A DNA stretch of 64,000 bases, taken from Thermoplasmata archaeon. GTDB lineage: Archaea > Thermoplasmatota > Thermoplasmata > Lutacidiplasmatales > UBA184. Under the pieces are notes generated by a model. It was not told the origin of the DNA. It saw only the letters and a list, made by a program, of their open reading frames with translations, and did not search any database. Each line of letters opens with the position of its first letter. Position 1 is the first letter of the stretch. Made by a program: the position numbers and the translations under genes. Below are positions 37,767 to 59,508 of this stretch, piece after piece. The stretch is from positions 9,088 through 73,087 of the forward strand of contig JASHWW010000005.1 of NCBI GenBank assembly GCA_030043855.1, in the 5' to 3' direction.

Positions 37767-38336
37767 TCACGCGGTGCGCGATCGGGCGTGACGGCGGGCC
37801 AGGAATTCGCCCGCCCGCCGGACCGCTCGGGCCCGGTGGGAGATCGCATTCTTCCGCTCCGCCGGTACCTGCCCGAACGTCCGGTCCCAGCCGGTGGGTA
37901 TGAAGATCGGGTCGTAGCCGAACCCGTGCGATCCGGCGGCCCGCCGGGCGATCGTTCCGTGGACGTCGCCTCGGAAGAGGTAGGTCCGTCGGCCGACCCG
38001 AAGCGCCGCCACGGTACGGAAGTACGCCCGCCGGTTCCGGCGCTCCAGCAGCTCGAAGATCGGGCGAAATTTCCAGATGCGCAGGAAATGGGCCGAGTAG
38101 ACGCCCGGAAAACCTCCGAGCGACGGGATGAACAGTCCGGAGTCCTCGACGAGCACCGGTCCCGGGATGTCGCGGGTCGCCCGAAGCTTCGATCGGACGA
38201 CCTCCTCGAGGGTCTCCGCCTGAGGCTCCGGAAGGGTGCGGCGAATCCAGCGCACCTCGACCCCGTACGGACGGAGTACGGCGCGGACCTCGCGCGCCTT
38301 TCCCGGATTGGTGCTGACGAACGTCACCCGGCGCAC
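37767..38336 (-). CDS. rdgB: Non-canonical purine NTP pyrophosphatase (Ham1/RdgB ITPase)
   Basis: VTFVSTNPGKAREV...LVEDSGLFIPSLGGFPGVYSA...FGYDPIF. GTG start. Confidence 0.8.
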   Translation of the reverse strand: MRRVTFVSTNPGKAREVRAVLRPYGVEVRWIRRTLPEPQAETLEEVVRSKLRATRDIPGPVLVEDSGLFIPSLGGFPGVYSAHFLRIWKFRPIFELLERRNRRAYFRTVAALRVGRRTYLFRGDVHGTIARRAAGSHGFGYDPIFIPTGWDRTFGQVPAERKNAISHRARAVRRAGEFLARRHARSRTA

Positions 38337-38346
38337 GGTCCGACGC

Positions 38347-38886
38347 CTACCACGGGTATTCGTCGTACGCGAAGATCTCGTCCGGGCTCTTGCGGCCGTC
38401 CCCGTTGTTCGTCCCCGACGCGCCGTTCGTCTCCGCCGGGAAGCCGATCGGGATGACGGCGATCGGGTGGATCCCCTCCGGGACGCGCAGCACCGACCGG
38501 ACCTTCTGTTCGTTGAACTCGACCAACCAGTTCGTGCCCAACCCTTCCGAGGTGGCGGCGAGCTGCAGGTGGTCGACCGCCACCGCGACGTCGAGCGGGT
38601 ACGCGGAGATGTAGCCCCCGACGGTGACCGGAATGTCCTCCTCGACGGCGAACGCCACGATCACGGCCGGGGCCTCGGCGATCAGGCGGCCCCGATTGGA
38701 CGCCTGAGCGAGCAGGCGCTTCTGCTCGTCATCGCGGACCACCACGAACCGCCACGGCTGGAGGTTGTGCTGGCTGGGCGCGAGGCGCGCCGCCGCGAGG
38801 ACGGCCTTGAGCTTCTCCGGCGGGATGGGCCGGGGATGGTACGATAGGCACGGCCGGTAGGAGCGAATCGCGTCGAGAACGTCCAT
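38347..38886 (-). CDS. Nitroreductase-family protein
   Basis: RPCLSYHPRPIPPEKLKAVLAAARLAPSQHNLQPWRFVVV is the nitroreductase N-terminal signature. FMN-binding fold. Confidence 0.75.
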   Translation of the reverse strand: MDVLDAIRSYRPCLSYHPRPIPPEKLKAVLAAARLAPSQHNLQPWRFVVVRDDEQKRLLAQASNRGRLIAEAPAVIVAFAVEEDIPVTVGGYISAYPLDVAVAVDHLQLAATSEGLGTNWLVEFNEQKVRSVLRVPEGIHPIAVIPIGFPAETNGASGTNNGDGRKSPDEIFAYDEYPW

Positions 38887-39114: not shown

Positions 39115-39393
39115 GTGGGGCTCGCCGACCTCTTCGTGGCCGTCCTGATCGTCGGGATCTCGTGCATCAACGCGGCCGTCCCGTCGGCCGCCTTCGGACG
39201 GTCGCGCGATCCTCGGTTTCTCGTGCTCGCCGGCGCGAACGCCGTCTTCGCGGTCGTCGGGCTCCTCTGGGCGTGGGCCCAGCTGCCCCTCGGGCCCCCC
39301 GCGGGGCTCGGCGTCGACTTGCCGGTCGCCGTCCTGGTCCTCCTCGCCACGCTCCTCCTCCTCGCGACCACGTTGTGGCCCCGACGCGACTGA
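39115..39393 (+). CDS. Small membrane protein (92 aa, 2-3 TM)
   Basis: GLADLFVAVLIVGISCINAAV...FAVVGLLWAWAQL...VAVLVLLATLLLLATTLW. GTG start. Its stop overlaps the next ATG. TATA-like ttccttaaac sits about 28 nt upstream. Confidence 0.4.
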   Translation: MGLADLFVAVLIVGISCINAAVPSAAFGRSRDPRFLVLAGANAVFAVVGLLWAWAQLPLGPPAGLGVDLPVAVLVLLATLLLLATTLWPRRD

Positions 39394-39396
39394 GCG

Positions 39397-39924
39397 ATGG
39401 AGGACGACCCGCTCGCCCTCGCCACGCGGCGCCGAATCTACGAGGCGGTGCGTCGGGCGCCGGGCGCCGGAGCGCGCGAGACCCAGCGCGCGGCCGGAAC
39501 CGGCTGGGGCGAGACGACGTACCATCTCGACCGGCTCACCGACGCGGGACTCGTGCACCGGGAGCGGAGTGGCCACCAGGACCACTACTTCGTCGCGGAC
39601 GTTCCGCTCGGGGACCGGCGGCTGCTCGGCCTCACGCGGTCCGCTTCGGCCCGGCGACTGTTGGTCACCCTCCTCGAGACTGACGAACCGACGATTCCCG
39701 AACTGACCGACCGCACCGGCCTGAGCGAGGGCCGCCTCTCGGTCCACCTGCGTCGTATGATCGAGACCGGAGTGGTCCGCACGGGCCGGCGGGAGCGGTG
39801 GAGGACGTTCGAGCTCGTCGACCGCGAGCGGGTCCGTCGCCTCCTCGTCACCTACCGGGACGGTCTCGGCGACTCGGCGATCGAAGGGGTCCTGGCGGCG
39901 TGGTCGGAGCTGTTCCGACCGTGA
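39397..39924 (+). CDS. Winged-helix (ArsR-like) transcriptional regulator, two tandem wHTH-like repeats
   Basis: RRRIYEAVRRAPGAGARETQRAAGTGWGETTYHLDRLTDAGLVHRE and RRLLVTLLETDEPTIPELTDRTGLSEGRLSVHLRRMIETGVVRT. Confidence 0.6.
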   Translation: MEDDPLALATRRRIYEAVRRAPGAGARETQRAAGTGWGETTYHLDRLTDAGLVHRERSGHQDHYFVADVPLGDRRLLGLTRSASARRLLVTLLETDEPTIPELTDRTGLSEGRLSVHLRRMIETGVVRTGRRERWRTFELVDRERVRRLLVTYRDGLGDSAIEGVLAAWSELFRP

Positions 39925-40000
39925 ACCGGCGGGTTTGGACCAACGGATTCCGCCCTTGAACCAAAAACGGGGTGGTCGTCCTCCGCCCTGCTTCCTCCCG

Positions 40001-40981
40001 ATGACGAACGGGATGCGCCGCTCCGGGCGCCTCGGCGCGCGGTTCCCCCGGCGCGCTGCGATGCCGATCGCCGTCCTCCTCGGAGTCGCCGTCCTGTTCG
40101 TCGTTCCCACGGGCGCGATCGCCGGCGCTCCCACCACGGTCTGGGGAGGGTCCTCCGCGTCCTGGACCAACGGCCTGGTCCTGTGCGTGTTCGCCCCGTC
40201 CGCCCCGTCCGTCGGCGCGTCGGCGCTGGCCCGCCCGAACACCGGGATGACCTTGTCCGTCGAGTCGATGGCCGAAGTCTCCAGCGGCGGTTCGACCGTG
40301 GCCTCCGCCGACCTCGCCAACGCGACGTGGTCCGTGGCGAATCTCTCGTCCGACGACGCCTACGACCTGGCGTACTTCGCGAACGCCTCCGTCATCGGGG
40401 CGGGCGCCGCCGCCGACGGCACCGTGGCGATGCAGGTCCAGTTCGTCCTTCCGGCGTACGCGGAGGAGGGAGCCCCCGCGCCGAACGCCGTCGTCGTCGC
40501 GCTCAACGTCTCGGGATGGCCCTGGCAGGCCCCCACCGACCATCTGATCCTCACGTTCGCCGCGCAGCCGTCGTTCCCCACGGCCGAGCACCTCATCCTC
40601 GGTGCGGCCGGTGGGCCCCTGGTCGCGGGCGCCTCGACGAGTTCGGGGGCGACCTTCGAACAGCTGTTCGGCGCCGCGTCGGCCAACGCGACGCCCGCCG
40701 GCGGCGGAACGGTCGCAGTGCCGGCGACCGCCACCGTCGCCGGGAGTTCCGCCGCCGCGACTGTGTCGGTCGCGTTCGGCGACTCCGCCGGCGCGTACTC
40801 CGCCCTCTCCTACGCGGCCCAGGTCACGATCGTCTTTCCCCCATCGATCGCCGGCATCCCGACGGTCGACCTGGTTGCCGTCGGCGCGGCCGCGGCCGTG
40901 GTCTCCCTGGTGCTCGCGGCGGGCGTCCGTCGGATTCGGCGGGGCCCGTCCAACCTGACCTACGTGGAGGAGGAACCGTGA
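40001..40981 (+). CDS. Hypothetical cell-surface protein (signal peptide, Ala/Gly/Ser-rich, C-terminal TM anchor, about 6 N-x-S/T sequons)
   Basis: MTNGMRRSGRLGARFPRRAAMPIAVLLGVAVLFVVPTGAIAGAP...IPTVDLVAVGAAAAVVSLVLAAGVRRIRRG. Sequons: NATW, NLSS, NASV, NVSG, NATP, NLTY. Confidence 0.5.
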   Translation: MTNGMRRSGRLGARFPRRAAMPIAVLLGVAVLFVVPTGAIAGAPTTVWGGSSASWTNGLVLCVFAPSAPSVGASALARPNTGMTLSVESMAEVSSGGSTVASADLANATWSVANLSSDDAYDLAYFANASVIGAGAAADGTVAMQVQFVLPAYAEEGAPAPNAVVVALNVSGWPWQAPTDHLILTFAAQPSFPTAEHLILGAAGGPLVAGASTSSGATFEQLFGAASANATPAGGGTVAVPATATVAGSSAAATVSVAFGDSAGAYSALSYAAQVTIVFPPSIAGIPTVDLVAVGAAAAVVSLVLAAGVRRIRRGPSNLTYVEEEP

Positions 40982-41193
40982 CGAACGAGGAGCGCGAAGC
41001 GTCGACGTTCGCCGACTGGACCGTGCGCCTGGAGTGCGGCCACCGCGTGGCCGTCCCGTACGGAGTGGCGGTTCCGGCCATGGCAGCCTGCCTCGTCCAT
41101 CACCAGGAGGTCTGTCCCCAGGACGCCTTTGCCGATCCCGCCGAGTTCGGGGTCGCCCTCCCGATCCCCCGGGGGGCGTCGTTCCCATGAGCG
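40978..41193 (+). CDS. Small Cys/His-rich protein (71 aa)
   Basis: VTNEEREASTFADWTVRLECGHRVAVPYGVAVPAMAACLVHHQEVCPQD. GTG overlaps the upstream stop (GTGA) and its stop overlaps the cupredoxin ATG. Translationally coupled, but there is no homology evidence. Confidence 0.3.
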
Positions 41194-41816
41194 ACCGATC
41201 CCGGGTTGGACCTGGCCGGACCCTCGCGGTCCTCACGGGGGCGGCGCTCCTGCTCTTGACCCTGCTGGCCGCCCGGGGCGTAGGCGTCGCCGCGGCCGCC
41301 TCTCCGGCGGCCTCCCCCGCGGCCGAGTTCGTCAACGTTAGCGCGACGAGTGTCCTTTCGTTCCAGCCGGGATCGTTCGATGTTCTCCCGGGCGCCACCG
41401 TCCACCTCGTCGTGACCCAGCTCGCGAATTTCAACCACACGTTCACGCTCTCGTCGGTCGTCAACGTCACGATCCCGAGCACCGACAACGCGAGCGCCGT
41501 CGCCGCGTTCTTCAACGCGCATCCCCCGATCGTCAACCTCTCGCTCGGCTCGACGGTCGGCACCGAGTTTTCGGACACGTTCGTCGCGCCGTCGACCCTC
41601 GGGGCGTACGAGTTCGTCTGCCTGATCCACTTCCCCACGATGATCGGAGAGATGCAGGTCGTGGCGACCTTGCCCGGGCCGTCCAGCACGACCTCGGCGA
41701 TCTCGACCACCGAGCTCGTGGCGATCGGGGTGGGACTCCTCGTGGTCGTCGTCGTGATCGTGCTCGTGGTTCGATCTCGCAAGCGCCGCGCGGGTGGCAA
41801 GACTCCCCCGGCCTAG
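41187..41816 (+). CDS. Membrane-anchored cupredoxin (halocyanin/plastocyanin-like type 1 blue copper protein)
   Basis: Signal peptide, then NFNHTFTL (His ligand), then YEFVCLIHFPTMIGEM (Cys-x2-His-x4-Met), then a C-terminal TM GVGLLVVVVVIVLVV. Multiple N-x-S/T sequons. Confidence 0.7.
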   Translation: MSDRSRVGPGRTLAVLTGAALLLLTLLAARGVGVAAAASPAASPAAEFVNVSATSVLSFQPGSFDVLPGATVHLVVTQLANFNHTFTLSSVVNVTIPSTDNASAVAAFFNAHPPIVNLSLGSTVGTEFSDTFVAPSTLGAYEFVCLIHFPTMIGEMQVVATLPGPSSTTSAISTTELVAIGVGLLVVVVVIVLVVRSRKRRAGGKTPPA

Positions 41817-41838
41817 TCCCGCGTCGCATGGGGAGGCG

Positions 41839-43779
41839 GCCGTGGCAGTCCCCTGGAGCGTCTCCCCGGAGCCGATCCGGGAACTCTCGGGCGGCGTGGT
41901 CGCCTACAACGAGGAGGCGAACCTGCGCGGCGCGGTCCGGTCGCTCCTGGACCAGCACCTCCCCGACGGGGTTCGCTGGAGGAACGTCTGGGTCGTCGCG
42001 AGCGGATGCACGGACGGGACCGTCGGCGTGGCCGAGACCCTCGCGTCGGAAGATCCGCGCATCCGCGTCCTGGTCGAGTCCGACCGGGGCGGGAAGGCGC
42101 GGGCCCTCGGCGCCGTGTTCGCCCGCGCCGAGGGAGATGCGCTCGTCCTGCTGAACTCCGACGCCCGGGCCGAGCCGGGGGCCGTCGCCCACCTGGTCTC
42201 GGTCGCGTCCGGGAAGTCCGCCCCCTACGCGGTGATGGGGCGGCCGGTGGTCCCCGCGACGGTCGGCGGCCCGTGGTCCCCGATGCTGCGGTGGATGTGG
42301 GAGCTGCACCACGAGTTCCACCTCGAACTGCTGGCCGACGGACGGGGCGGCCACCTCTCCGACGAGCTGTTGCTGCTGAGCCTCCCGACGGTCGTTCCAC
42401 CGCCGGCAGGAACCATCAACGACGGGTCGTACCTCGCCGTCTGGTTGGCGCAGCACGCCGGGGGTCGGTGGTACGCCCCGGACGCTCGCGTTGCGATCCA
42501 GATCCCGTCCCGGCTGAGGGACCATCTGCACCAGCGCCGGCGGATCCACGTCGGCAACGGACAGGTCGCTTCGCTGCTCCGCACACCGCCGGCCACGATC
42601 CCCGAGCAATTCTTCCGACGGCCCGCGGCGACGCTGCGCCTGCTGCGCCGTCTGCTGGCGCGACCGAACGGAGTCCGGGACTTCGGTCGACTCGCCGCAG
42701 CGGAACTCGCCTCGTACGGCCTCGCCGCGTGGGACCTCTTGCCCCCACGACGCGATCACGTCCGCTGGCAACGGATTGAGCTGCCGTCGTCCGGATCGGC
42801 GCCCTCCGCTCCGGCCGAGTCGGAGACCCGGGACTCCGACGGGACGGAACGACGGGTCGCGGCGATGCTCCGCGTGGCGCGACAGTTCGACACGGGACTC
42901 GACCTCGCACGACTTCGGGACCTCCTTCCCGCCGACGGGCCCGCGACCCCGGCGGCCGTCGAGCGCTGGATCCTCGAGCGGCCCACGATCGGGCGACTGG
43001 ACGCGGGGCGCATCTTTGCCCCCGAGGCCGAGGGCCGAGGGACGGCGGACCGGGAGCGGCGCGCGGCGGCGTACCGTCGGTACGCGACCGCGGTCGTGGA
43101 AGGCCCGCTCGGCTTCGCCGCCCCCCTGGTCCGATGCGTCGGCGTGAGCGGGTCGGTCGCGTACGGCGAAGCGCGCCCCGGCGATGACCTCGACCTGTTC
43201 GTGGTGCCGCGGACCGGTGCCCTCTGGTGGTTCCTGCTCCGCGCGTACGTCCACCTGCGTCTCGCGCCGCCCGTCGCGGTGGACGGCGAACGGCCCGAGG
43301 TCTGCCTGAACTACGTGGTGGAGGACGCGTCCGCGGCTCGGGAGTTCGCGGCCCGCGACGGACTGCTCTACGCGCGCGAGGCGCTCTCCGTCCGCGCGAT
43401 CGCGGGCGATCCGTACTACCGCGGGCTCCTCGCATCGGCCCCGTGGATGCGCTCCGAGCTTCCCCGTCTGTGGGACCAGCGGAGCGCGGACCCCGGGGGG
43501 ATCGACCCCCAACCCGCCCCGCGGGGGATCCGGCTGCTCAACGCGCTCGTCTTCCCGTTCCTCGCCACGTACCTGCAGCTGGTCGGTCTGGTCCGGAGCT
43601 CGCACGGACGCCGCGCCCGTGGAGCCGATGGCGAGTTCCGGACCGAAACCGCGCTCCACCGGGTCGCGTTCGCTTCGCGACGGTTCGAGCGGCTCCGGTC
43701 GGACTACGGCGAGCGCCGATCCGTGGACTCGCCGGCCGATGCGACGCCGGCCCCGTCGGGGGCTCCGGCGGCCCGGTGA
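41839..43779 (+). CDS. Family-2 glycosyltransferase fused to a C-terminal Pol-beta-type nucleotidyltransferase-like domain
   Basis: N-terminal GGVVAYNEEANLRGAVRSLL...ASGCTDGTVGVAETL...LLNSDARAEPG is a GT-A/GT2 DxD-type fold. C-terminal CVGVSGSVAYGEARPGDDLDLFVV matches the hG[GS]x9-13DhDh NTase motif. Start is uncertain: GTG at 41794 or 41839. Confidence 0.6.
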   Translation, partial: AVAVPWSVSPEPIRELSGGVVAYNEEANLRGAVRSLLDQHLPDGVRWRNVWVVASGCTDGTVGVAETLASEDPRIRVLVESDRGGKARALGAVFARAEGDALVLLNSDARAEPGAVAHLVSVASGKSAPYAVMGRPVVPATVGGPWSPMLRWMWELHHEFHLELLADGRGGHLSDELLLLSLPTVVPPPAGTINDGSYLAVWLAQHAGGRWYAPDARVAIQIPSRLRDHLHQRRRIHVGNGQVASLLRTPPATIPEQFFRRPAATLRLLRRLLARPNGVRDFGRLAAAELASYGLAAWDLLPPRRDHVRWQRIELPSSGSAPSAPAESETRDSDGTERRVAAMLRVARQFDTGLDLARLRDLLPADGPATPAAVERWILERPTIGRLDAGRIFAPEAEGRGTADRERRAAAYRRYATAVVEGPLGFAAPLVRCVGVSGSVAYGEARPGDDLDLFVVPRTGALWWFLLRAYVHLRLAPPVAVDGERPEVCLNYVVEDASAAREFAARDGLLYAREALSVRAIAGDPYYRGLLASAPWMRSELPRLWDQRSADPGGIDPQPAPRGIRLLNALVFPFLATYLQLVGLVRSSHGRRARGADGEFRTETALHRVAFASRRFERLRSDYGERRSVDSPADATPAPSGAPAAR

Positions 43780-43787
43780 GTCGAACG

Positions 43788-44729
43788 ATGGCGACCGCCT
43801 CGATCAGCGATTACGAAGGGTTCGATTTCGCATCGCTCTGGCATCGTCGCGAACGGGTGACCGAGGTCGAGCAGCGGTTCCTCGTGGCGGCCCTCGCCGG
43901 CGCCGATCGTCGTCGGGTTCTCGAGCTCGGGGCCGGGTTCGGCCGCTTGACTCCGACCCTCGCCCGGATCGGGGGAGAGGTGGTCGCGACGGACTTCGAC
44001 CGGGGCAGCCTCGAGCGGATGCGGACCGCCGAGGGCAGCGCGCCCCGGTTCGTCCGCATCGCAGCGAACCTGTACCACCTCCCGTTCGTCGACGGCGCGT
44101 TTCCGGCCGCCACGATGGTTCGGGTCTACCATCATCTCGACGACCCGGTCGCCGCGCTCTCCGAGTTGCGTCGCGTCCTCGCCCCGGGCGGGCAGGTGCT
44201 CGTCTCGTACAACCCGAAGCCGTCCGTGGGCACGCTGGTCAACGATATCCAGCGCGCCCTCCGTCCGACCGCCGAGTTCCGGTCGATCACGTTCTCCCGG
44301 GAGCGCCATCTCGAGCTGCCGCCCGATCCGTTTCCCGTCCACGTGGGCCCGCGCGCCGAGTTCGCCGACGTCGTCCGGTCCGCCGGGTTCGCGATCGCGT
44401 CGGAGCGCGTTTCCGGCCTCGAGGAGTACTACCTGATGCGCTTCGTTCCGGCGGAGGTCTTCGTCCGGGTCGGTACCGCCCTCGGCCGCGCTCCGGGGTT
44501 CCCGATGCGATTCGCCTTGCTGCGGGCCCCCGGCGCTCCCCCCGGACGTCTGGTCCCGGCGTCCGAGCTACTCGCTTGCCCCCGCTGCCGCGCTCCCGTC
44601 GCGGGGACCGAGGCGGGGGCGGCGTGCTCGTCGTGCGGGTTCTTCGGCGAGGCACGCGACGGGGTCCTCGACCTGCGGTACGTCCCGGACGGAGCGACCC
44701 GGTGGCGGGGAGCCGGACATGCTCGCTGA
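43788..44729 (+). CDS. Class I SAM-dependent methyltransferase with a C-terminal Cys4 zinc ribbon
   Basis: RVLELGAGFGRLTPTL (motif I), VATDFD (motif II), then ACPRCRAPVAG...CSSCGFFG (Trm112-like ribbon). Confidence 0.7.
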   Translation: MATASISDYEGFDFASLWHRRERVTEVEQRFLVAALAGADRRRVLELGAGFGRLTPTLARIGGEVVATDFDRGSLERMRTAEGSAPRFVRIAANLYHLPFVDGAFPAATMVRVYHHLDDPVAALSELRRVLAPGGQVLVSYNPKPSVGTLVNDIQRALRPTAEFRSITFSRERHLELPPDPFPVHVGPRAEFADVVRSAGFAIASERVSGLEEYYLMRFVPAEVFVRVGTALGRAPGFPMRFALLRAPGAPPGRLVPASELLACPRCRAPVAGTEAGAACSSCGFFGEARDGVLDLRYVPDGATRWRGAGHAR

Positions 44730-45912
44730 CGCGCGTCCGCCCGGCTCGGACGCCGAGCTTCCGCACCTGGAGCTCGTTCGGGAGAGCGGGCGCCTCCCGC
44801 TCGGGTTCGTGTCCGACGGCGCCGATGTCCTCCTGATCGCCCGGGATCGATCGGCGCGGTGGCCGACCGAGATCCTCCGGGACGGAGCGGTGGAGCTGGC
44901 GGTCGGAGAGCGGCAGGTCCGCGGCGCTCCGGAGCTCGTCACGGACCCGGACGAAAAGCAGCGGGCGACGAGCCTGTTCCGGGCGAAGTACGGAGCGGTC
45001 GGATTCGAGAAGTGGTACTCGCATCCGGCCCGGATCGTCCGGGTGGTCGTGGGGGACGGACCGCCGTCGGTCGACCCGCCGGGTCAGTACCGCCGATGGC
45101 TGGAGGCGGAATTCGACAACGTCGCCGACGACTACGATCGACACATCACCGGCAACCGCGTCAACCGATTGCTCCGGGACCGGTCGCTGGCGGAGCTGCG
45201 CCGGGCATTCCGCGGCCGCCACCGGCTGCTCGAGATCGGGTGCGGCTCGGGGATGGAGACGCTGCCGTTGCTGGAGGACGGGCACGAGCTCGTCTGCGTC
45301 GACCTCTCGGCCCGGATGCTGGACGTGGTCCGGGCGAAGGCGCGGGCGGCCGGCCGCTCCGAGGCTCTGACCACGTTTCGGTCGACCGCGGGCGACCTCT
45401 CGCGACTCACGCCGGACCTCGGCGAGGGCGCGGTCGATGGGGCCTACTCGACGTACGGCGCGTTGAACTGCGAGGCGCACCTCGACCGGGTGGCGCTCGC
45501 CCTCGGCGGCCTGCTGCCCGCCGGAGCCCCGTTCGTGGCGGGGGTCTACAACCGCTGGTGCCTCTTCGAGCTCGCGGGCTACGGGCTGACCGGTCGTCTG
45601 CGTCGCGCGTTCGGGCGCACCGGCTCGCCCGTTCCGGTCGGCGCTTCCCGGTTCTGCGTCGACGTCTTCGCGTACTCCTGGCCCGAGTTCCGTCGCCGGT
45701 TCGCCCCCTGGTTCGAGGTCCGGCGGGTCGAGGCGGTCCCCGTCCTGCTGCCGCCGTCGGACCTCGCCGGATACGCCGATCGGTTCGATCGGGGGTGGGC
45801 CGCGCTGCGGCGGCTCGACGCGGCGGTCGGGCAGCGGTGGCCGTTCTTTGGGTTCGGCGACCACTTCCTCGCGACGTTCGCCCGACGTGCGGGGCCGTCG
45901 GGAGCCGGATGA
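44719..45912 (+). CDS. Fusion of a deazaflavin(F420)-dependent nitroreductase-like (PNPOx/DUF385-like) domain and a class I SAM methyltransferase
   Basis: N-terminal DVLLIARDRSARWPTEILRDGAVELAVGERQVRGAPELVTDPDEKQRATSLFRAKYG resembles the small split-barrel F420-binding family. C-terminal RLLEIGCGSGMETLPL...LVCVDLS is MTase motif I/II. ATG overlaps the upstream stop. Confidence 0.6.
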   Translation: MLADARPPGSDAELPHLELVRESGRLPLGFVSDGADVLLIARDRSARWPTEILRDGAVELAVGERQVRGAPELVTDPDEKQRATSLFRAKYGAVGFEKWYSHPARIVRVVVGDGPPSVDPPGQYRRWLEAEFDNVADDYDRHITGNRVNRLLRDRSLAELRRAFRGRHRLLEIGCGSGMETLPLLEDGHELVCVDLSARMLDVVRAKARAAGRSEALTTFRSTAGDLSRLTPDLGEGAVDGAYSTYGALNCEAHLDRVALALGGLLPAGAPFVAGVYNRWCLFELAGYGLTGRLRRAFGRTGSPVPVGASRFCVDVFAYSWPEFRRRFAPWFEVRRVEAVPVLLPPSDLAGYADRFDRGWAALRRLDAAVGQRWPFFGFGDHFLATFARRAGPSGAG

Positions 45913-48005
45913 CGACCGCTGCGGTGCCGCGCCGGCTGAGTGGGCGCCTTCGGGCGATCCCTCCGGCGGCGTGGCTGGGAGTCGCCATCGGGGTCTACTT
46001 CGGCGTTTCCTTCGGCCTCTCTTGGCTTCGGGCCATCGAACTCCAGACGACGACGTGGGACCTCGGACTCTACCAGCAAGCGTTGTGGACGACGGCCCAC
46101 GGCCACCCGTTCTACGAGACCGCGGACGTCGAGACGGGCGGGTACCGCTCGCTCCTGCAGGTGCACACGGTCTTCCTGCTCTACGCCATCGTTCCGATCT
46201 ACGCCGCGCTCCCGAGCGAGGCGACCCTGTTCGCGATCCAGTCCGCCGTGGTCGCGTTGGCGGCAGTCCCGCTCTACCTGCTCGCGCGGCAGCGGACGGG
46301 GTCCCCTTGGTTGGGGCTTGTGGCCGCGATCGTCTTCCTCGCCGCGACCCCGACCCTCTCCTCGAACCTCTACGACTTCCACCCGGAGGCGTTCCTGCCG
46401 CTCGAGCTGTTCGCGACCGTCCTGCTCTGGGAACGGGGGCGGTACGGGCCAGGCCTGGTCGTCGCCGCGCTCGGCTGGTCGACCTTCGAGCTGATGCCGG
46501 TGCTCCTCGCGTTCGTGGGCCTGTTCTTCCTGCTCCCGTCGGGCGCCACGGTGCGCCGCTGGGTCGCCGCGTCGCGCGGACCTCGCGGATGGTCGGCCGT
46601 CGTCGTCGACCTCCGCACGGCGATCCGGGCCCCCCGCGTCCAGGCGTCCCTCGCCCTGCTCGTCGGCTCGGTCCTCGCGTACGTCGTGCTGCTCGACCTA
46701 CGCACGGGGTACCTGCTCACGACGCTCGGCACCACGCCGCTGCCGACCCCCCCGAACGGCTACGTGATCGGGGGAACGCCGGCCGCGCTCGGACTCGCGT
46801 CCGGGAACGTCGCGATCGGATTCTTCGCGAAGGCGACCTACTGGATCCTGCTGCTCGCGCTCCTCGGATTCGTGCCGCTGTTCGCACCCCGGGCCCTCGT
46901 CCTCTCGATCCCCTGGTTCGCGTTCACCCTGTTCAGCGCGAACACGAACTACGTGGAGCTCGGATTCCAGTACGGGTTCATCGCCGAGGCCGGACTGTTC
47001 GTCGCGTTCGCGTACGGCCTCGGGCCCGCGACGTCGTTCGCCCGTCGCTGGCTCGAACGACCGATCGACGCCGCCCCGCCGGCCCGCCCCCGACGCCGCC
47101 CCCGCGCGTGGGCGATCGGAGCCCTCACGGTCCTCGTCGTCGTGAACGTCGCGCTCACGCCGGCCAATCCGTGGATGCAGGATCGCGGGCTGGGGTCGGC
47201 CTACCGGATCTCGTACGGAGGCGGGGGAGGCTTCGCGAACGTGGAGGCGCTGGTCGGCCTCGTCCCGTCGGGAGCGGTGGTGGTCGCCAGCGACAACCTG
47301 TTCCCGCTGGTAGCGAACGACCCGAACGCGTATTCGTTCTTCTGGACCCAGAACAACCTCCTCGCGCTCCCCTTCTCTCCGTCGGACCCGCCCAACTACG
47401 TCCTGCTCGCCGACAACCGGACCGGAGCCGTTCCCGGTTGGCTCGCGACCGAACTCTACAACTCGTCGATCTTCGGCGTGCGCGGGGTCGACTGGGACTC
47501 CGCGGCGGGCACGCTGCTCCTCTTCGAATCCGGGTACTCGGCGACGCCGGCGGAATTTGGGGCCCTGCCCGCCGCAGGGTTCTCGACCTCGGGGGCGTCG
47601 TTGATCGATCCGGAGGCCGGGATCCCAGCGACGTTCCCGAATCAGCCGTCCGGCGGCTCGGCGGCCAACGCGCCCGGTGTGGCGGGGACGTTCCTCCAGG
47701 GACCGTGGACGACGCTGTCGCCCGGCGCGTACGTCGCGACCCTTCGATTGATCGCACTTCCAGTGCCGGGGTATCCTGCGGTCGGCGGGAACGACTCGGT
47801 CGTCTGGATCGGCGCCGCGGCGTTCGGACAGGCCCAGTTCTTCGGCGTGACCCTACCGGCCAGCGTCCTCGAAACTCCGGGCGGGATCGTCGAGAGTCAG
47901 CCGTTCTACGTCCCCGCTCCGACGCTGCAGTTCGAGATCCAGGGGGTCGCCCTCTCGACCAGCGTCGAGGTCGTCTGCGCGAGCGTCGCGATCGAACCGA
48001 GCTGA
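45909..48005 (+). CDS. Polytopic membrane protein (GT-C-like, resembling DUF2079) with a large C-terminal extracytoplasmic domain
   Basis: TWDLGLYQQALWTTAHGHPFYETAD...YRSLLQVHTVFLLYAIVPIYA is followed by about 10 further TM helices and then a 300-aa Gly/Ala/Ser-rich tail with an NxS/T sequon. ATGA overlap with the upstream gene. The N-terminal part of ORF 44859..48005 is shadow. Confidence 0.55.
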   Translation: MTTAAVPRRLSGRLRAIPPAAWLGVAIGVYFGVSFGLSWLRAIELQTTTWDLGLYQQALWTTAHGHPFYETADVETGGYRSLLQVHTVFLLYAIVPIYAALPSEATLFAIQSAVVALAAVPLYLLARQRTGSPWLGLVAAIVFLAATPTLSSNLYDFHPEAFLPLELFATVLLWERGRYGPGLVVAALGWSTFELMPVLLAFVGLFFLLPSGATVRRWVAASRGPRGWSAVVVDLRTAIRAPRVQASLALLVGSVLAYVVLLDLRTGYLLTTLGTTPLPTPPNGYVIGGTPAALGLASGNVAIGFFAKATYWILLLALLGFVPLFAPRALVLSIPWFAFTLFSANTNYVELGFQYGFIAEAGLFVAFAYGLGPATSFARRWLERPIDAAPPARPRRRPRAWAIGALTVLVVVNVALTPANPWMQDRGLGSAYRISYGGGGGFANVEALVGLVPSGAVVVASDNLFPLVANDPNAYSFFWTQNNLLALPFSPSDPPNYVLLADNRTGAVPGWLATELYNSSIFGVRGVDWDSAAGTLLLFESGYSATPAEFGALPAAGFSTSGASLIDPEAGIPATFPNQPSGGSAANAPGVAGTFLQGPWTTLSPGAYVATLRLIALPVPGYPAVGGNDSVVWIGAAAFGQAQFFGVTLPASVLETPGGIVESQPFYVPAPTLQFEIQGVALSTSVEVVCASVAIEPS

Positions 48006-48525: not shown

Positions 48526-49113
48526 GCGTCGCGCACCGCCGCCGTCCGCATTCGGTCGCTCCGACCGGGCGAATGGCGCACGTACCGGCGGGTTCGGCTG
48601 CGGTCGCTCGCCACGGACCCCCTCGCCTTCGGGTCGACCCTCGCCCGCGAGCGCGACCTCGCCGAGACGCAGTGGCGGGACCGCTTGACCCACGGACCCG
48701 GAGGTTCCGCCTCGCGCACGTGGGCGGCGATCGATGCGCGCGAACGATTCGTCGGGGTCGCCTCGGTAGTCGACGTCGACGGAGACTGGCACGTCTTTGC
48801 GATGTGGGTCGCGCCCGCGCTCCGGGGTCGGCGGGTCGGCGCCCGGTTGCTCGACGCCGGGATCGCCTGGGCGCGGTCCGTCGCTCCCCGTCGCCGCGTC
48901 GTGTTGGACGTCAATCCCCGCCAAGTCGCCGCGCACCGCCTCTACGAATCGCGGGGATTCCGCGCGACGGGGCGAACGGAACCGCTGGGCCACACCGACG
49001 GGGAGTCGGTGGTCGAGATGGTCCTCGGTCCGCGATCGCCCGTTCGCTCGACCTCGGTGTCGAAGGCTCCGGCCCCTCCCCGACGGGGCCCGAGCGACCG
49101 GAGGGCCCGGTGA
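48526..49113 (+). CDS. GNAT-family N-acetyltransferase
   Basis: VFAMWVAPALRGRRVGARLLDAGIAWAR is the acetyl-CoA-binding motif A (Q/RxxGxG/A). GTG start is approximate. Confidence 0.6.
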   Translation, partial: ASRTAAVRIRSLRPGEWRTYRRVRLRSLATDPLAFGSTLARERDLAETQWRDRLTHGPGGSASRTWAAIDARERFVGVASVVDVDGDWHVFAMWVAPALRGRRVGARLLDAGIAWARSVAPRRRVVLDVNPRQVAAHRLYESRGFRATGRTEPLGHTDGESVVEMVLGPRSPVRSTSVSKAPAPPRRGPSDRRAR

Positions 49114-50084
49114 CCGCGCTCGCGGGCGAGGCGCCGGTCATCACGGCGGACGCGGTCCGGCATACGTACGGCAAGGGACGGTACGCGCTCGACGGGGTGA
49201 GCTTCTCGGTCGGTCGCGGCGAAGTGTTCGGCCTCCTCGGTCGGAACGGCGCCGGCAAGTCGACCCTGATCAAGGCGATGACCACGCTAATCCAGCCGAC
49301 CTCCGGGCAGCTCCGGGTCCTGGGCCTCGACCCGCGGCGCGACGGCCGCCGGATCCGAGAGCGGATCGGCGTGGTCCAACAGGGGGAGTCGATGGATTTC
49401 ACGACCGTCGAAGGGAACCTCGACCTCTACGGATACCTGTGGAAGGTCCCCGCCGCCGAGCGCCGCCGGCGCAGCGAGCTCCTGATCGAACGGTTCGGGC
49501 TCGGAGAGTTCCGCACCCGGCGCTCGTGGGACCTGTCGGGCGGACAGAAGCGGCGGGTCCAGGTCGCCCGCGAATTCATGCACGACATGGACGTCCTCTT
49601 CCTCGACGAACCGACGATCGGATTGGACGTGCTGATGCGTCGCGTCCTGCTCGACTCCGTCCGCGCCGAGGTCCGCAAGGGCCTCACGGTGGTCTTCACG
49701 ACGCACAACCTCGAGGAGGCCGACTACCTGTGCGACCGCATCGCGGTCATCGACGAGGGCCGCATCCTGGCGCTCGACACGGTGGCTAACCTGAAGCGGC
49801 TCTACAGCGGGAAGCGGACGGTCGACCTGACGGTCGCGGAGGCCGACGCCGGTCGGTTCTTCGACGCCCTATCGTCCGCGCTCGGCCCTGCGGCCTCCGT
49901 CACCGCCACGGCCGGATCGGCCGTGGTGCTCGTCGACGACCCGAAGTCGGCGCTGGGCACCATCGTGGAGCTCGCCCAGCGGCTGGGGGTGCAGCTGGAG
50001 TGGCTCACGGTCCGACAGAACACGCTCGAAGACGTGTTCTTGAAGTCGATCGCGCACCGGGGGGATCCGTCTGGCAGCGCCTAA
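49110..50084 (+). CDS. ABC transporter ATP-binding protein (ABC-2 type)
   Basis: GLLGRNGAGKSTL (Walker A), LSGGQKRRV (signature), VLFLDEPT (Walker B), TTHNL (H-loop). GTGA overlap with the GNAT stop. Confidence 0.85.
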   Translation: MTALAGEAPVITADAVRHTYGKGRYALDGVSFSVGRGEVFGLLGRNGAGKSTLIKAMTTLIQPTSGQLRVLGLDPRRDGRRIRERIGVVQQGESMDFTTVEGNLDLYGYLWKVPAAERRRRSELLIERFGLGEFRTRRSWDLSGGQKRRVQVAREFMHDMDVLFLDEPTIGLDVLMRRVLLDSVRAEVRKGLTVVFTTHNLEEADYLCDRIAVIDEGRILALDTVANLKRLYSGKRTVDLTVAEADAGRFFDALSSALGPAASVTATAGSAVVLVDDPKSALGTIVELAQRLGVQLEWLTVRQNTLEDVFLKSIAHRGDPSGSA

Positions 50085-50139
50085 CCTCGTCCGGCTCATC
50101 GTCCGGAACATCCGGGTCAACACCGACCCGGCGAGCCTC

Positions 50140-50829
50140 GTGATCCTGATGGGACTCCCGGCGATGTACCTGATCTTCTTCGGGTTCGGGTTCCAGTCGC
50201 TCTCCTCGGGCGGCGGGAACTACCTCGCGTTCCTCGCGCCGGGGATCATGTCGTTCCAGGCCGTCATGGCGGGGACGGTCGGGGGCAGCATCCTCTGGGC
50301 CGACCGCCGCTGGGGGATGCTCGCCCAGCTCCTCGTCGGGCCGTTCACGCGGACCGAGTACCTGTTCGGCATCATGCTGACGTCGCTCCTGCTCGGCCTC
50401 GGCGGAGCGGCCCTGATGCTGGTCATCGCGGTCGTGCTCCTCGGCACCACGACCGTGACCCTCGGGGGCGGCCTGGTCGCCTTCGGCGCGATCGCGTTGG
50501 GATCGATCTTCTTCGGCTCGGCGATGCTGCTCCTGGCGGCCCTCGTCAAGTCGAACAACGCGTACAACTCGATCCAGATCCTGCTGATCTTCTTCGTGAA
50601 TTTCGCATCGACCGTCTTCTATCCGGCCAGCCCGAGCCTCCCGCTCGTACTCCGCGCGCTCTTCGTACTCAACCCGCTGACGTACATCGCCGACACCGCG
50701 CGCGCCGGCTACGCGGGGACCCTCGGCGGGACGAACGCGCTCGAGATGGGGATCCTCGCCGTCGAGTCGGCCGTCGTCCTGGTCCTGGCGGTCCGGGCGT
50801 ACCTGCGTTCGGACGTCAGCCTCGAGTGA
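50140..50829 (+). CDS. ABC-2 family permease (possibly N-terminally longer than the annotated GTG start)
   Basis: Six TM helices (LMGLPAMYLIFFGFGF...). The in-frame upstream stretch 50062-50139 encodes a typical ABC-2 N-terminus (NLVRLIVRNIRVNTDPASLVIL) but contains no ATG/GTG/TTG. Confidence 0.65.
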   Translation: MILMGLPAMYLIFFGFGFQSLSSGGGNYLAFLAPGIMSFQAVMAGTVGGSILWADRRWGMLAQLLVGPFTRTEYLFGIMLTSLLLGLGGAALMLVIAVVLLGTTTVTLGGGLVAFGAIALGSIFFGSAMLLLAALVKSNNAYNSIQILLIFFVNFASTVFYPASPSLPLVLRALFVLNPLTYIADTARAGYAGTLGGTNALEMGILAVESAVVLVLAVRAYLRSDVSLE

Positions 50830-50853: not shown

Positions 50854-51615
50854 TCAGCACGGGGTCCCGGTCCCGGCGACCACCGTGAAGGCCCCGACGC
50901 CGGTCCCGTACGTGCTTCCGACGACCACGAGCACGTACGTCCCCGGAGCGAGACTGGGCAGCACGGTCCACCCGCGATGGAACGCACCGGTCACGTTGGC
51001 GGAGAACCCGTGGAGTATCCGAACGTGGGCGGCGTTCGACCACGGTCCGAGGTAGAAGTTCTCGCCGTCCATCGGGTAGAACCCGTGGCCGGTCAGCCTC
51101 AGGCAGCCGTCCGCCATGACGGTCGTCGTCGACAACGAGAAGTGGATCGAGCTCGAAGAGACGCGGAACGAGCTCGTGATCGTCGTCGGTCCCTCGCGGG
51201 CGATGACCAGGTAGGAGCCGCGGTTCACCGACGGTACGTTGACGTTCCGCACGAATCCGCCCGTGCTGTTCGTCGTCACCGTGATCGCGTGGTTGTAGGG
51301 ATACGGCTGGTTGTTCAGGTTGAACCCGGTGAGGTCGGGAGAGGTGAATGTGAGATTCACGTCGACCGAGTGATGGAAGTGCGTTCCGGTGACGATGATC
51401 GCGTAGCCGGTCGTCCCCGAACTGGCCGAGAGGGCGATCTGCGGCCCCGTGGCCGTCTGGAGACCGGAGTCTCCCGCGAGCGAACCCGCAGCACCGGACA
51501 GCGACCCCAGGACCGCCAGAAGACCGACGAGGGCCCCGACGCCGACCGCCCACACGACCGGCGATCCCCACCCGTTCGACCCCGTCTCCGCTCGCTGCAG
51601 ATCCATTTTCGTCAT
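50854..51615 (-). CDS. Hypothetical secreted/extracellular protein (signal peptide, beta-rich, N-x-S/T sequons)
   Basis: MTKMDLQRAETGSNGWGSPVVWAVGVGALVGLLAVLGSLSGAAG...NLTFTS, NSTGG, NVTGA. Only the 3' 250 codons of minus ORF 50854..55425 are gene-like. TATA-like gtgttatac sits about 35-45 nt upstream. Confidence 0.5.
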   Translation of the reverse strand: MTKMDLQRAETGSNGWGSPVVWAVGVGALVGLLAVLGSLSGAAGSLAGDSGLQTATGPQIALSASSGTTGYAIIVTGTHFHHSVDVNLTFTSPDLTGFNLNNQPYPYNHAITVTTNSTGGFVRNVNVPSVNRGSYLVIAREGPTTITSSFRVSSSSIHFSLSTTTVMADGCLRLTGHGFYPMDGENFYLGPWSNAAHVRILHGFSANVTGAFHRGWTVLPSLAPGTYVLVVVGSTYGTGVGAFTVVAGTGTPC

Positions 51616-51858
51616 CGTGCCCCACCGCGCGGCGCGACGGCCCCGAGGGTGCGGCAGTATAACACGGCACGTCGGAGCGCCGCGGGACCGGGGCCACCCT
51701 CGCGCGGCGAACGGTGCGCCGGGCAGGGCTCGGAGCCCGTCCGACCGCAGGGTTATATATGGCGGACAGGGCTCGGGGAGCCGCGCCGACAACCGTCCGA
51801 CAAACGGGTGCGTTTCGGCGACGGGAGACCGATCGGGCGGAACCGGACGGAGCGACCG

Positions 51859-56441: not shown

Positions 56442-56444
56442 ACG

Positions 56445-59418: not shown

Positions 59419-59508
59419 TCCCTGTACGGACGCGGCAGGGGTACTAATGGGCACCACCGTTCCCCGGCCGGGGCCAACACTTTAGTTTGGCCCGCGCTCG
59501 CCGCGGGG

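Follow-up and report, generated by a model that had tools for sequence, protein, structure and literature searches.

The stretch of DNA analyzed here, a 64,000-nt window from a Thermoplasmata archaeon (GCA_030043855.1, contig JASHWW010000005.1, positions 9,088-73,087 of the forward strand), contains a nine-gene co-directional array (39115-48005), of which g1-g4 form the second half. In order, the genes and their principal domains are:

39115-39393, plus strand: u1, a small membrane protein with three predicted transmembrane (TM) helices (hydropathy scan), which opens the array
39397-39924, plus strand: winged-helix (HTH) regulator, HTH_HVO_0163_N and HTH_24 (Pfam E=1.9e-14 and 2.2e-12)
40001-40981, plus strand: u3, a membrane-anchored surface protein and candidate acceptor, judging from sequence features
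40978-41190, plus strand: s73, a soluble Cys/His protein of 70 aa (CGH...HH...C), whose gene overlaps the stop of u3 and the start of u4
41187-41816, plus strand: u4, a membrane-anchored cupredoxin-like protein with 5 sequons
41842-43779, plus strand: g1, 645 aa, GTG start preceded by GGGAGG
41842-42780, plus strand: GT2 catalytic part of g1 (residues 1-313)
42844-43737, plus strand: module X of g1 (residues 335-632), consisting of a winged helix, a Pol-beta-type NTase core, and a helical part
43788-44729, plus strand: g2, 313 aa
44719-45912, plus strand: g3, 397 aa, with a Ddn-like split beta-barrel (about residues 12-110) and a class I SAM methyltransferase (about 130-397)
45909-48005, plus strand: g4, 698 aa

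The genes g1-g4 are genuine: all four lie on the plus strand in the frames originally predicted, with a third-position GC of 0.83-0.95 and the lowest GC at the second position in the GC3 frame plot, and over 100 metagenome-derived genomes of Thermoplasmata encode full-length homologues. For g1, one database protein is identical (100%) and has the same length, 645 aa. Two details of the original prediction have to be corrected, namely, its start of the cluster at 41839, which is not a start codon (the GTG of g1 is at 41842), and its 9-nt gap between g1 and g2, which measures 8 nt. The 11-nt overlap of g2 and g3 and the ATGA overlap of g3 and g4 agree with the coordinates, and the tight packing of the four genes conforms to a single co-directional operon, a translationally coupled unit. 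The cluster does directly follow the surface-protein and cupredoxin genes, but these are not mere neighbors, both being part of the conserved array.

A frameshift origin of the fusions, a concern raised from the outset, is excluded by full-length homologues in the best 120 matches for g1 and, likewise, for g3. More generally, the idea that unrelated genes are juxtaposed here by chance, or that the fusions were mis-assembled, is refuted and retains a vanishingly small probability: independent assemblies supply over 100 full-length proteins of each kind, GT2-X and split-barrel methyltransferase, linkage is retained even though gene order is shuffled between loci, and the core, consisting of GT2, X, and the split-barrel methyltransferase, recurs in a second phylum, Nitrososphaerota, with a DUF2079 or GT87-like membrane protein as the partner. 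In Nitrososphaerota, the core adjoins a Glycos_transf_4 (AglH/WecA-type) gene and phosphatases. No support for an artefact was found; the sole caveat is that two additional fusions of X, to a g3-type methyltransferase in P0250 and to a g2-type methyltransferase in P0310, are single cases, each on one short metagenome contig. Thus, the homologues are not scattered singletons; instead, synteny is conserved, although part of it may be inherited rather than selected because most of the Thermoplasmata loci come from related lineages.

Conservation extends to the upstream half of the array. The u1 gene, for which a Pfam search gave no match, is kept immediately 5' of the HTH gene in L001, L003, L006-L010, L019, L020, L023, L024, L026, and L028, and its position is taken by a 93-aa, 3-TM DUF8036 protein in Nitrososphaerota-type loci. 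The HTH regulator shows 57-80% identity among related loci and lies invariably between u1 and u3. The u3 protein, assigned to no family in the Pfam search, has an N-terminal signal/TM segment, a C-terminal TM segment, 6 N-x-S/T sequons, and a Ser+Thr content of 17%. The s73 gene, with a GTG start preceded by GGAGGAGG, has homologues between u3 and u4 or g1 in L003, L006, L022-L028, L033-L035, and L038, and u4, which combines signal/TM and C-terminal TM segments with the ligand pattern C-x2-H-x4-M and a Copper-bind match under the Pfam cut-off (E=0.0069), is found in L003, L006, L010, L019, L020, L022-L025, and L034. All in all, either u3 or the s73/u4 genes downstream of it are located 5' of g1 in all loci with upstream sequence (about 30) except for L005 and for L017/L018, where g1-g4 are present and u1-u4 are missing.

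The GT2 assignment of g1 holds (Glycos_transf_2, E=3.2e-18, passing the Pfam cut-off), and Glyco_tranf_2_3 covers residues 19-234, the full length of that family. A profile built from fused as well as stand-alone members identifies PcManGT as the nearest solved relative (Pcal_0472 of Pyrobaculum calidifontis, PDB 6YV7/6YV8/6YV9; match to 6yv7, E=3.8e-15, residues 15-233, nearly the whole catalytic domain), an archaeal, GDP-mannose-dependent enzyme with which g1 shares the E-x-x-R-x-G-K-A-x-A and D-A (DxD-type) motifs; weaker matches are the polyprenyl-phosphate transferases GtrB, ArnC, and DPMS. PcManGT is reportedly dolichyl-phosphate dependent, with a dolichyl-phosphate-linked acceptor. Residues invariant in both lineages are S54, R82-G84-K85, N105-x-D107-A108, S173-D174-E175, N193-D194-G195, and R232-R233-R234. 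In PcManGT, a mannosyltransferase (PMC10569066, PMC12595478), the catalytic base is Asp223 (PMC12595478), and N193-D194-G195 of g1 aligns within one residue of it. The C-terminal end of PcManGT consists of three TM helices (PMC10569066), whereas g1 has a helical extension, a linker, and module X instead. Because a hydropathy scan detects no TM helices in the GT2 part of g1, in contrast to GtrB, ArnC, and DPMS, carrier binding would have to be peripheral.

The same domain bears on an account in which the array makes a glycolipid or lipoglycan: the GT2 would glycosylate an archaeol or tetraether core lipid directly at the cytoplasmic face, the methyltransferases and X would modify the head group, the DUF2079/GT87-like protein would extend the lipoglycan outside, and the upstream surface proteins would not be acceptors. 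The full-length Glyco_tranf_2_3 coverage and the invariant arginines in Q-R-R-R-I, resembling the (Q/R)xxRW motif typical of lipid-glycosylating and processive GT2s, are compatible with such a role, as are weak Glyco_transf_21 matches in the GT2 of Nitrososphaerota and in an additional GT2 of L015, the tetraether lipids made by both Nitrososphaerota and the phylum that includes Thermoplasmata, the hydrophobic, membrane-associated substrates typical of Ddn-type barrels, and the L017/L018 loci. However, the tryptophan of the motif is replaced by Ile, the reported acceptor of PcManGT is not a core lipid, u3 and g1 are strongly linked, and a Glycos_transf_4 gene is adjacent in Nitrososphaerota loci, so that we consider this pathway unlikely.

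The hub of the gene set is the NTase-like module X, a region of about 300 aa for which no family was found in Pfam or NCBIfam and for which the NTP_transf_2 match in g1 (15.7 bits) fails the Pfam cut-off of 21. The predicted NTase fold emerges from structural comparison, where the best 50 Foldseek matches of a model with pLDDT 87.7 are all Pol-beta-type NTases, headed by ANT(4') and AadA, which nucleotidylylate sugar hydroxyls. The anticipated motif is present, but its spacing is x9 rather than x11 (G437-S438-x9-D448-D449-L450-D451), and it is invariant or nearly so among 119 homologues, with no variation in the GS and DxD residues and with a conserved pair of acidic residues after the third strand. 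The fusion of GT2 with an NTase is also real, but it is a lineage-specific joining of two usually separate genes: X is mostly a stand-alone protein, and 10 of 145 representatives have it joined to GT2. Stand-alone X adjoins GT2 and the split-barrel methyltransferase, and a PF04185 phosphoesterase recurs in such loci.

With its residues taken at face value, X looks catalytically competent. Alternatively, it could serve as a regulator that controls GT2 and the methyltransferases, being a nucleotide-binding or protein-nucleotidylylating domain akin to GlnE, DrrA, and MntA, or as a scaffold, a pseudo-enzyme that does no more than assemble them, with the chemistry reduced to glycosyl transfer and methylation. 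Its N-terminal winged helix, typically an interaction domain, the three different fusion partners, the protein-AMPylating DrrA, GlnE, and MntA among its structural neighbors, and the lack of any other window gene that requires a nucleotide-derived substituent are in line with this possibility, but the strict conservation of the GS, DxD, and third acidic positions in two phyla argues for catalysis, the best matches are small-molecule sugar nucleotidyltransferases, and the phosphoesterase would fit the turnover of a phosphodiester product. A purely non-catalytic or protein-directed X therefore seems improbable to us.

Both methyltransferases are as predicted. The g2 protein is a class I SAM methyltransferase (Methyltransf_11, E=2.9e-18, passing the cut-off) ending in a Trm112-like Cys4 ribbon, CPxC...CxxCG...GVxDLR, kept in five of six homologues, and its gene adjoins g1 or g3 in L003, L006-L008, L017, L020-L022, L026, and L029; the second methyltransferase, in g3, likewise passes (Methyltransf_25/11, E=2e-8). 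The deazaflavin-nitroreductase-like barrel of g3 fails the Pfam cut-off but is supported by motifs and the predicted fold, its closest known system being the Ddn/FDOR-A deazaflavin-dependent reductases. As the Ddn family reduces menaquinone, g2 and g3 could be envisaged as UbiE/MenG-like C-methyltransferases of quinones or isoprenoids, with the barrel binding a menaquinone-type substrate and the glycosyltransferases functionally separate. Ubie_methyltran matches occur in both proteins, and the best NCBIfam match of g2 is demethylmenaquinone methyltransferase, but its score (56.9 bits, E=2e-15) is far under the cut-off of 327 and hence signifies generic class I similarity only. Furthermore, in the loci examined, the methyltransferases are always beside GT2 and X, both types are found fused to X, itself fused to GT2, and a domain search of the array found no quinone biosynthesis genes, making a quinone pathway very unlikely.

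As anticipated, g4 is a polytopic DUF2079 protein (Pfam E=1.7e-50, residues 43-483, passing the cut-off), with at least 10 hydrophobic segments in a hydropathy scan, a C-terminal extracytoplasmic domain of about 215-270 aa, and W50-D51 and Y155-D156-F-H158-x-E160 invariant across 4 homologues. DUF2079 is, from its Pfam clan, a putative GT-C member; profile comparison with GT87-like proteins and a PDB search for a solved relative of g4 by sequence both gave no match, and a literature search found no characterized DUF2079 member. Most loci include a polytopic partner, whose family varies: DUF2079 in the window, L003, L006, L007, L010, L017, L020, L022, L023, and L030, and GT87-like in L012 (28.4 bits, passing the cut-off of 25) and, under the cut-off, in L005. 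In L001, GT2-X and g3 are present, and no polytopic partner was found within 10 kb. A GT2 combined with an interchangeable membrane transferase is the pattern expected of two-stage lipid-linked glycosylation.

Taken together, these observations delineate a conserved, previously undescribed gene set; the initial impression that the architecture matches no described pathway is borne out by the lack of an NCBIfam equivalog and by literature searches that returned no named family or paper. The probable role of this gene set is to assemble a modified sugar on a lipid carrier and to link it to the surface of the cell. More specifically, and tentatively, we propose that the nine-gene array serves to place a tailored and probably methylated sugar on the cell surface by way of a lipid-linked intermediate, with g1-g4 as the enzymatic half. 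At the cytoplasmic face, the g1 GT2 would load a dolichyl-phosphate-based carrier with a hexose taken from a nucleotide sugar. The g2 and g3 methyltransferases would then tailor the carrier-bound sugar, and X may act on the sugar or the carrier phosphate in a step that depends on a nucleotide, either O-nucleotidylylation or phospho-group transfer, and might also physically organize the GT2 and the methyltransferases. The product would cross the membrane, conceivably via u1 or a nearby ABC-2 transporter, no recognized flippase family having been found in the array, and g4 would hand it to an extracellular acceptor, most likely u3 (and u4), whose genes lie immediately 5' of g1, or a lipoglycan. 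The order suggested at the outset, in which nucleotidylation, methylation, and redox tailoring would precede membrane transfer, is plausible.

The Ddn-like barrel, a putative catalytic domain, has no necessary role in the lipid-carrier model.

Among the known systems, those closest to X are the Pol-beta-type NTases ANT(4'), AadA, MntA, GlnE, and DrrA. At the pathway level, WbdD of the E. coli O8/O9a polymannan system caps lipid-linked mannan with a methyl or methyl-phosphate group, using a methyltransferase that may or may not carry a phosphate-adding domain, of the kinase fold in WbdD, prior to ABC-2 (Wzm/Wzt) export. The array similarly combines methyltransferases with a phosphoryl/nucleotidyl-transfer-type module and has an ABC/ABC-2 pair within 10 kb in the window, L005, L008, and L015 (4 of about 10 long loci), but this linkage is inconsistent, the fold is that of an NTase, not a kinase, and there is no polymerizing glycosyltransferase set. 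In two-stage lipid-linked systems, such as GtrA/GtrB/GtrC, ArnC/ArnT, Ppm1/Pmt, and Haloferax AglD/AglR/AglS with the methyltransferase AglP, a GT2 in the cytoplasm charges polyprenyl phosphate with a sugar, which can be modified while bound to the carrier and is then used by a polytopic membrane transferase on the outer side. The array differs from these in the absence of membrane helices in its GT2 and of GtrA or another known flippase family in Pfam searches, and in having an NTase-like module together with two dedicated methyltransferases that bear accessory domains, but it resembles them in combining a small membrane protein, a GT2, and a polytopic protein, and the exchange between DUF2079 and GT87-like partners fits the same logic.

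The four plus-strand genes between 41.8 and 48.0 kb of the window (overall G+C content 71%), whose frame and strand were confirmed by a codon-position GC plot, are the distal part of a nine-gene array. The co-directional packing that led the original prediction to delimit a four-gene operon is real, but its extent was underestimated: five further genes on the same strand lie upstream almost without gaps.

Genes of the array (window coordinates, strand, product)
39115-39393, plus, 3-TM protein (u1)
39397-39924, plus, HTH regulator
40001-40981, plus, anchored surface protein with six sequons (u3)
40978-41190, plus, 70-aa Cys/His protein (s73), GTG start after GGAGGAGG, CGH...HH...C pattern
41187-41816, plus, anchored cupredoxin-like protein (u4)
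41842-43779, plus, GT2 glycosyltransferase fused to the NTase-like module X (g1), 645 aa
43788-44729, plus, methyltransferase with a Cys4 ribbon (g2), 313 aa
44719-45912, plus, split barrel fused to a methyltransferase (g3), 397 aa
45909-48005, plus, DUF2079 membrane protein (g4), 698 aa

The predicted 11-nt and ATGA overlaps are both present, whereas the gap given as 9 nt measures 8 nt, and g1 starts at 41842 rather than 41839. The small Cys/His protein, absent from the original prediction, overlaps the stop of u3 and the start of u4 by 4 nt each and is kept between u3 and u4 or g1 in at least 12 related loci. The array extends to 48005, where it faces the stop (48027) of a convergent glyoxalase-type gene.

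The unusual fusions hold. Nearly all of the best 120 homologues of g1 are 629-741 aa long, with one shortened to 550 aa, at 48-69% identity and, except for the latter, 94-100% coverage; the GT2-X fusion is thus genuine. The best 120 homologues of g3 likewise span both of its domains, and the possibility that frameshifts or mis-assembly created the fusions is ruled out by these full-length proteins. All close homologues in the g1 search come from Thermoplasmata metagenome genomes. In a synteny comparison of 38 related loci, taken from contigs of genomes and metagenomes, u3, or its followers s73 or u4, lies upstream of g1 wherever upstream sequence is available, except in L005 and L017/L018, and at least one of g2, g3, and g4 lies downstream wherever the contig extends that far. 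The downstream order varies (g2-g3-g4; g4-g3-g2; g4 followed by inverted g3 and g2; g3 alone), so that the neighborhood is conserved as a linkage across the sample and not as a fixed order; this persistence despite shuffling speaks for selection and not just for inheritance. A chance juxtaposition or an artefact is hardly credible.

A similar arrangement recurs where X is encoded by a separate gene. In L013, from a Nitrososphaerota metagenome-assembled genome, the order is an HTH gene, a 93-aa 3-TM DUF8036 protein, GT2, X, and a split-barrel methyltransferase, and L012 and L015 share it. Near this core lie a PF04185 phosphoesterase, a 590-600-aa polytopic protein (in L012, with GT87 at 28.4 bits), a protein-tyrosine-phosphatase-type gene, and a Glycos_transf_4 gene. 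The combination of GT2, X, and split-barrel methyltransferase is thus a core common to two archaeal phyla, with a membrane partner that alternates between DUF2079 and GT87-like proteins.

The GT2 assignment of g1 is borne out by Pfam (PF00535, 66.7 bits against a cut-off of 23.3, residues 19-149; Glyco_tranf_2_3, 39.5 against 27, residues 19-234). N105-x-D107-A108, of the DxD type, and N193-D194-G195 are invariant across seven fused and stand-alone GT2 members, and probably represent the metal/nucleotide motif and the putative catalytic base, respectively; D194 aligns within one residue of Asp223 of PcManGT. With a profile of fused and stand-alone GT2s, PcManGT from Pyrobaculum calidifontis (6YV7-9) is by far the best solved match (E=3.8e-15) and covers almost all of the catalytic domain; it is followed by the polyprenyl-phosphate transferases GtrB, DPMS, and ArnC and other GT2s, which match over the nucleotide-binding half only. 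PcManGT is an archaeal mannosyltransferase that uses GDP-mannose as donor and has three C-terminal membrane helices (PMC10569066, PMC12595478), whereas a hydropathy scan of the GT2 part of g1 detects no TM helix and no membrane anchor. The GtrB/ArnC/DPMS type is defined by a GT2 domain with interface helices and C-terminal TM helices after it, together with significant sequence similarity; g1 does not qualify, as its similarity is weak and confined to the N-terminal half (a single-sequence search gives E of 0.01-0.15, a profile search 7e-5 to 2e-3). A Q-R-R-R-I segment resembling QxxRW, along with JGI names such as PNAG synthase, had hinted at a processive polysaccharide synthase; as the main reading of the GT2 this is ruled out, since the protein has no membrane channel, another residue stands in place of the Trp, and NCBIfam PgaC reaches a score of only 43 where the cut-off is 422.

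Module X is the least conventional part of the system. Its motif reads G437-S438-x9-D448-D449-L450-D451 (the spacing had been given as x11), with the G, the S, and both DxD Asp residues invariant in homologues; after the third strand comes an acidic pair (alignment positions 160-161, the latter D or E in all sequences listed). As judged from the alignment, X conforms to the Pol-beta pattern hG[GS]-x9-13-Dh[DE]h with a third acidic residue. The expected NTase domain did not reach the NTP_transf_2/Polbeta gathering score (15.7-16.9 bits against 21, with 20 of 25 members matching, all below threshold and over about 25 residues only), but the model of g1 residues 335-632, built with 25 homologues (pLDDT 87.7, pTM 0.85), predicts three parts, one of them helical, and an NTase alpha/beta core fold. 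Known NTases resemble X distantly. A hydrophobic stretch at g1 565-584 was considered as a TM helix and judged unlikely to be one; it falls inside a 37-residue helix of the model (pLDDT 89-97), and this helix carries the conserved polar residues N233, Y243, R251, and R256. Searched against 1.84 billion representatives, the X profile recovers 663 proteins at E<1e-10, 201 of them at E<1e-30. Among the top 150 matches listed there are 145 new representatives, of which 133 are stand-alone X proteins, mostly of about 300-350 aa, and 10 are GT2-X fusions. The other two are fusions with methyltransferases, P0250 (739 aa, X with a g3-type methyltransferase) and P0310 (672 aa, X with a g2-type methyltransferase that includes the zinc ribbon), which need confirmation, each coming from one short contig. 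The stand-alone proteins are annotated as “hypothetical protein” and yielded no Pfam family; X is a protein family unnamed in Pfam or NCBIfam. The fusions to different enzymes could also fit X being a regulator or scaffold rather than a tailoring enzyme, against which stands the conservation of the GS and DxD residues; we view this alternative, which concerns the role of X only and is compatible with either of the pathway readings discussed below, as rather unlikely.

As predicted, both g2 and g3 are SAM methyltransferases; they belong to class I, with Pfam scores above cut-off (g2, Methyltransf_11 at 66.7 bits against 21.2; g3, Methyltransf_25 at 35.2 against 27 and Methyltransf_11 at 34.0 against 21.2). 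Taking Trm112-like to mean two CxxC pairs followed by G-[IV]-x-x-L, together with a Pfam Trm112p match, the C-terminus of g2 (CPxC...CxxCG...GVxDLR) keeps the pattern in 5 of 6 homologues, with no Trm112p or zinc-ribbon HMM at E<=1. The F420-nitroreductase-like barrel of g3 was upheld as a fold but not as a family: modeling predicts a Ddn-type split barrel (FDOR/PNPOx-like), while the family HMMs stay below cut-off (PNPOx_N, 18.1 against 28.1; F420H2_quin_red, 13.6 against 22). The methyltransferases and the barrel could suggest quinone or isoprenoid methylation, a reading that we consider very improbable.

The resemblance of g4 to DUF2079 proved strong (PF09852, 172.9 bits against 28.2, E=1.7e-50, residues 43-483 on profile positions 3-406 of 459). 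The protein is polytopic by hydropathy, and W50-D51 after TM1 is invariant in four homologues. GT-C glycosyltransferases are characterized by a membrane fold whose first extracytoplasmic loop holds an acidic residue and by a lipid-phosphate-sugar donor. DUF2079, which we take to belong to the GT-C clan of Pfam, gave no match to the PDB with either sequence or profile, and hhalign against the GT87-like partners returned a probability of 0.2 with four-sequence alignments. The 3-TM u1 (about 90-105 aa) has no Pfam match and did not qualify as a GtrA-family flippase (PF04138). For g1-g4 no NCBIfam equivalog cut-off was reached, and hence no named function can be given.

Several further genes recur around the array and the related loci.

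Neighboring genes (locus, coordinates, strand where recorded, product)
Window 31813-32781, plus, cis-prenyltransferase of the UppS/dolichol-chain synthase type (Pfam E=5e-79), 7-9 kb from the array
L001 21290-22022, minus, cis-prenyltransferase, within 10 kb
Window 37767-38336, minus, Ham1 (ITPase) gene
Window 38347-38886, minus, nitroreductase-family gene
Window 49110-50829, plus, ABC ATPase (DrrA-type C-terminal domain) and ABC-2 permease
L005 19461-21421, L008 1-1486, L015 2969-4997, ABC ATPase and ABC-2 permease
Window 50977-55488, plus, SMC
Window 56442-57065, plus, ScpB
Window 57079-59481, minus, pro-kumamolisin/subtilase-type protease
L001 15501-15728, L005 15748-15975, L007 about 14433-14645, L011 7608-7832, minus, ~75-aa protein
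L008 7647-7859, L014 8903-9145, plus, ~75-aa protein
L012 10281-11618, L014 12324-13448, L015 10492-11928, PF04185 phosphoesterase (stand-alone-X loci)
L012 15193-15669, L013 7701-8198, dual-specificity phosphatase-type gene (Nitrososphaerota-type loci)

Of about 10 long loci, four (the window, L005, L008, and the distant stand-alone-X locus L015) have the ABC/ABC-2 pair no more than 10 kb from the module, on either side of it. The pair could supply the export step for a lipid-linked product that the array otherwise lacks, but this count rules out a consistent exporter linkage. The phosphoesterase and phosphatase genes, neither of which was found in the window array, recur in stand-alone-X loci, a hint that the pathway produces and processes a phosphate or phosphodiester. 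The nearness of the cis-prenyltransferase may reflect lineage synteny rather than functional linkage. The nitroreductase-family and Ham1 genes (68-83% identity) accompany the array: in the window and L006 they precede it in inverted orientation, and in L001 and L003 they lie downstream of it. A soluble ~75-aa protein (…LSERLP.KYL.SDHG…) is in several loci the direct neighbor of X or of a g3-type methyltransferase; no Pfam family covers it, and it was not found in the window, L003, or L006. That the window derives from a Thermoplasmata archaeon is seen from its thermosome, SMC/ScpB, and HVO_0163-type regulator, and from the origin of the close g1 homologues; SMC, ScpB, and the protease, which flank the region in L001 likewise, are ordinary chromosomal context.

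From the parts and their linkage, which are observed directly, we infer all of the chemistry that follows. Our best mechanism, which we put forward tentatively as a real possibility, is that a lipid-linked sugar is made, tailored, and transferred by the DUF2079 protein. The cytoplasmic GT2 would load a hexose on a dolichyl-phosphate-based carrier (PcManGT is reportedly dolichyl-phosphate dependent, according to its original description); g2 and g3 would methylate the hexose, while X would make a nucleotide-dependent modification and hold the enzymes together; the product would cross the membrane, with u1/DUF8036 or the ABC-2 pair as candidate routes; and the DUF2079 protein would hand it over on the outside, where u3 from the same array is the most plausible acceptor. 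This mechanism is weakened by the GT2 having no membrane anchor, by the lack of a recognized flippase among array proteins compared with known families, and by the distant NTase likeness of X; a further weakness is that it gives the Ddn-like barrel no role. Direct synthesis of a glycolipid or lipoglycan head group, which would account for the same glycosyltransferase and methyltransferases and leave the co-encoded u3 aside, seems to us an unlikely alternative. A more specific version of the transfer mechanism is a long shot as a whole: X could be a new membrane-proximal nucleotidyltransferase family and the hub of a GT2-methyltransferase complex, adding a nucleotide- or phosphodiester-linked group to a dolichol-linked methylated sugar, and DUF2079 the archaeal enzyme that moves the unit onto surface proteins, u3 for example, that are rich in Ser/Thr or bear N-glycans. 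To our knowledge, the enzymes of archaeal protein O-glycosylation are still unidentified, and, if true, this version would therefore provide the first candidate machinery.

Archaeal surface glycosylation has been worked out in detail for a few cultured species only, and we know of few enzymes for the late, extracellular, or O-linked modifications. The module described here is shared by many Thermoplasmata and Nitrososphaerota, all carriers found being uncultured and their contigs stemming from peat and soil samples, and gives DUF2079, a family of unknown function, a clear enzymatic context. It raises the hypotheses that DUF2079 is a lipid-phosphate-sugar transferase, that X has nucleotidyltransferase activity toward a sugar or its carrier, and that the split-barrel methyltransferase has a membrane-bound substrate; the fusion patterns point to the proteins to co-express for reconstitution of the pathway. 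As originally suspected, the architecture is not a described pathway: in the literature and curated families, we found nothing describing X, the function of DUF2079, or the gene set. The module shares the two-stage logic of lipid-linked glycosylation with Gtr, Arn, Ppm1/Pmt, and Haloferax AglD/AglS with AglP, but belongs to none of these systems, having neither a GtrA-family protein nor a membrane-anchored GT2, and, compared with all of them, it alone brings in X, the Ddn-like barrel, and the putative Trm112-like ribbon as accessory domains.
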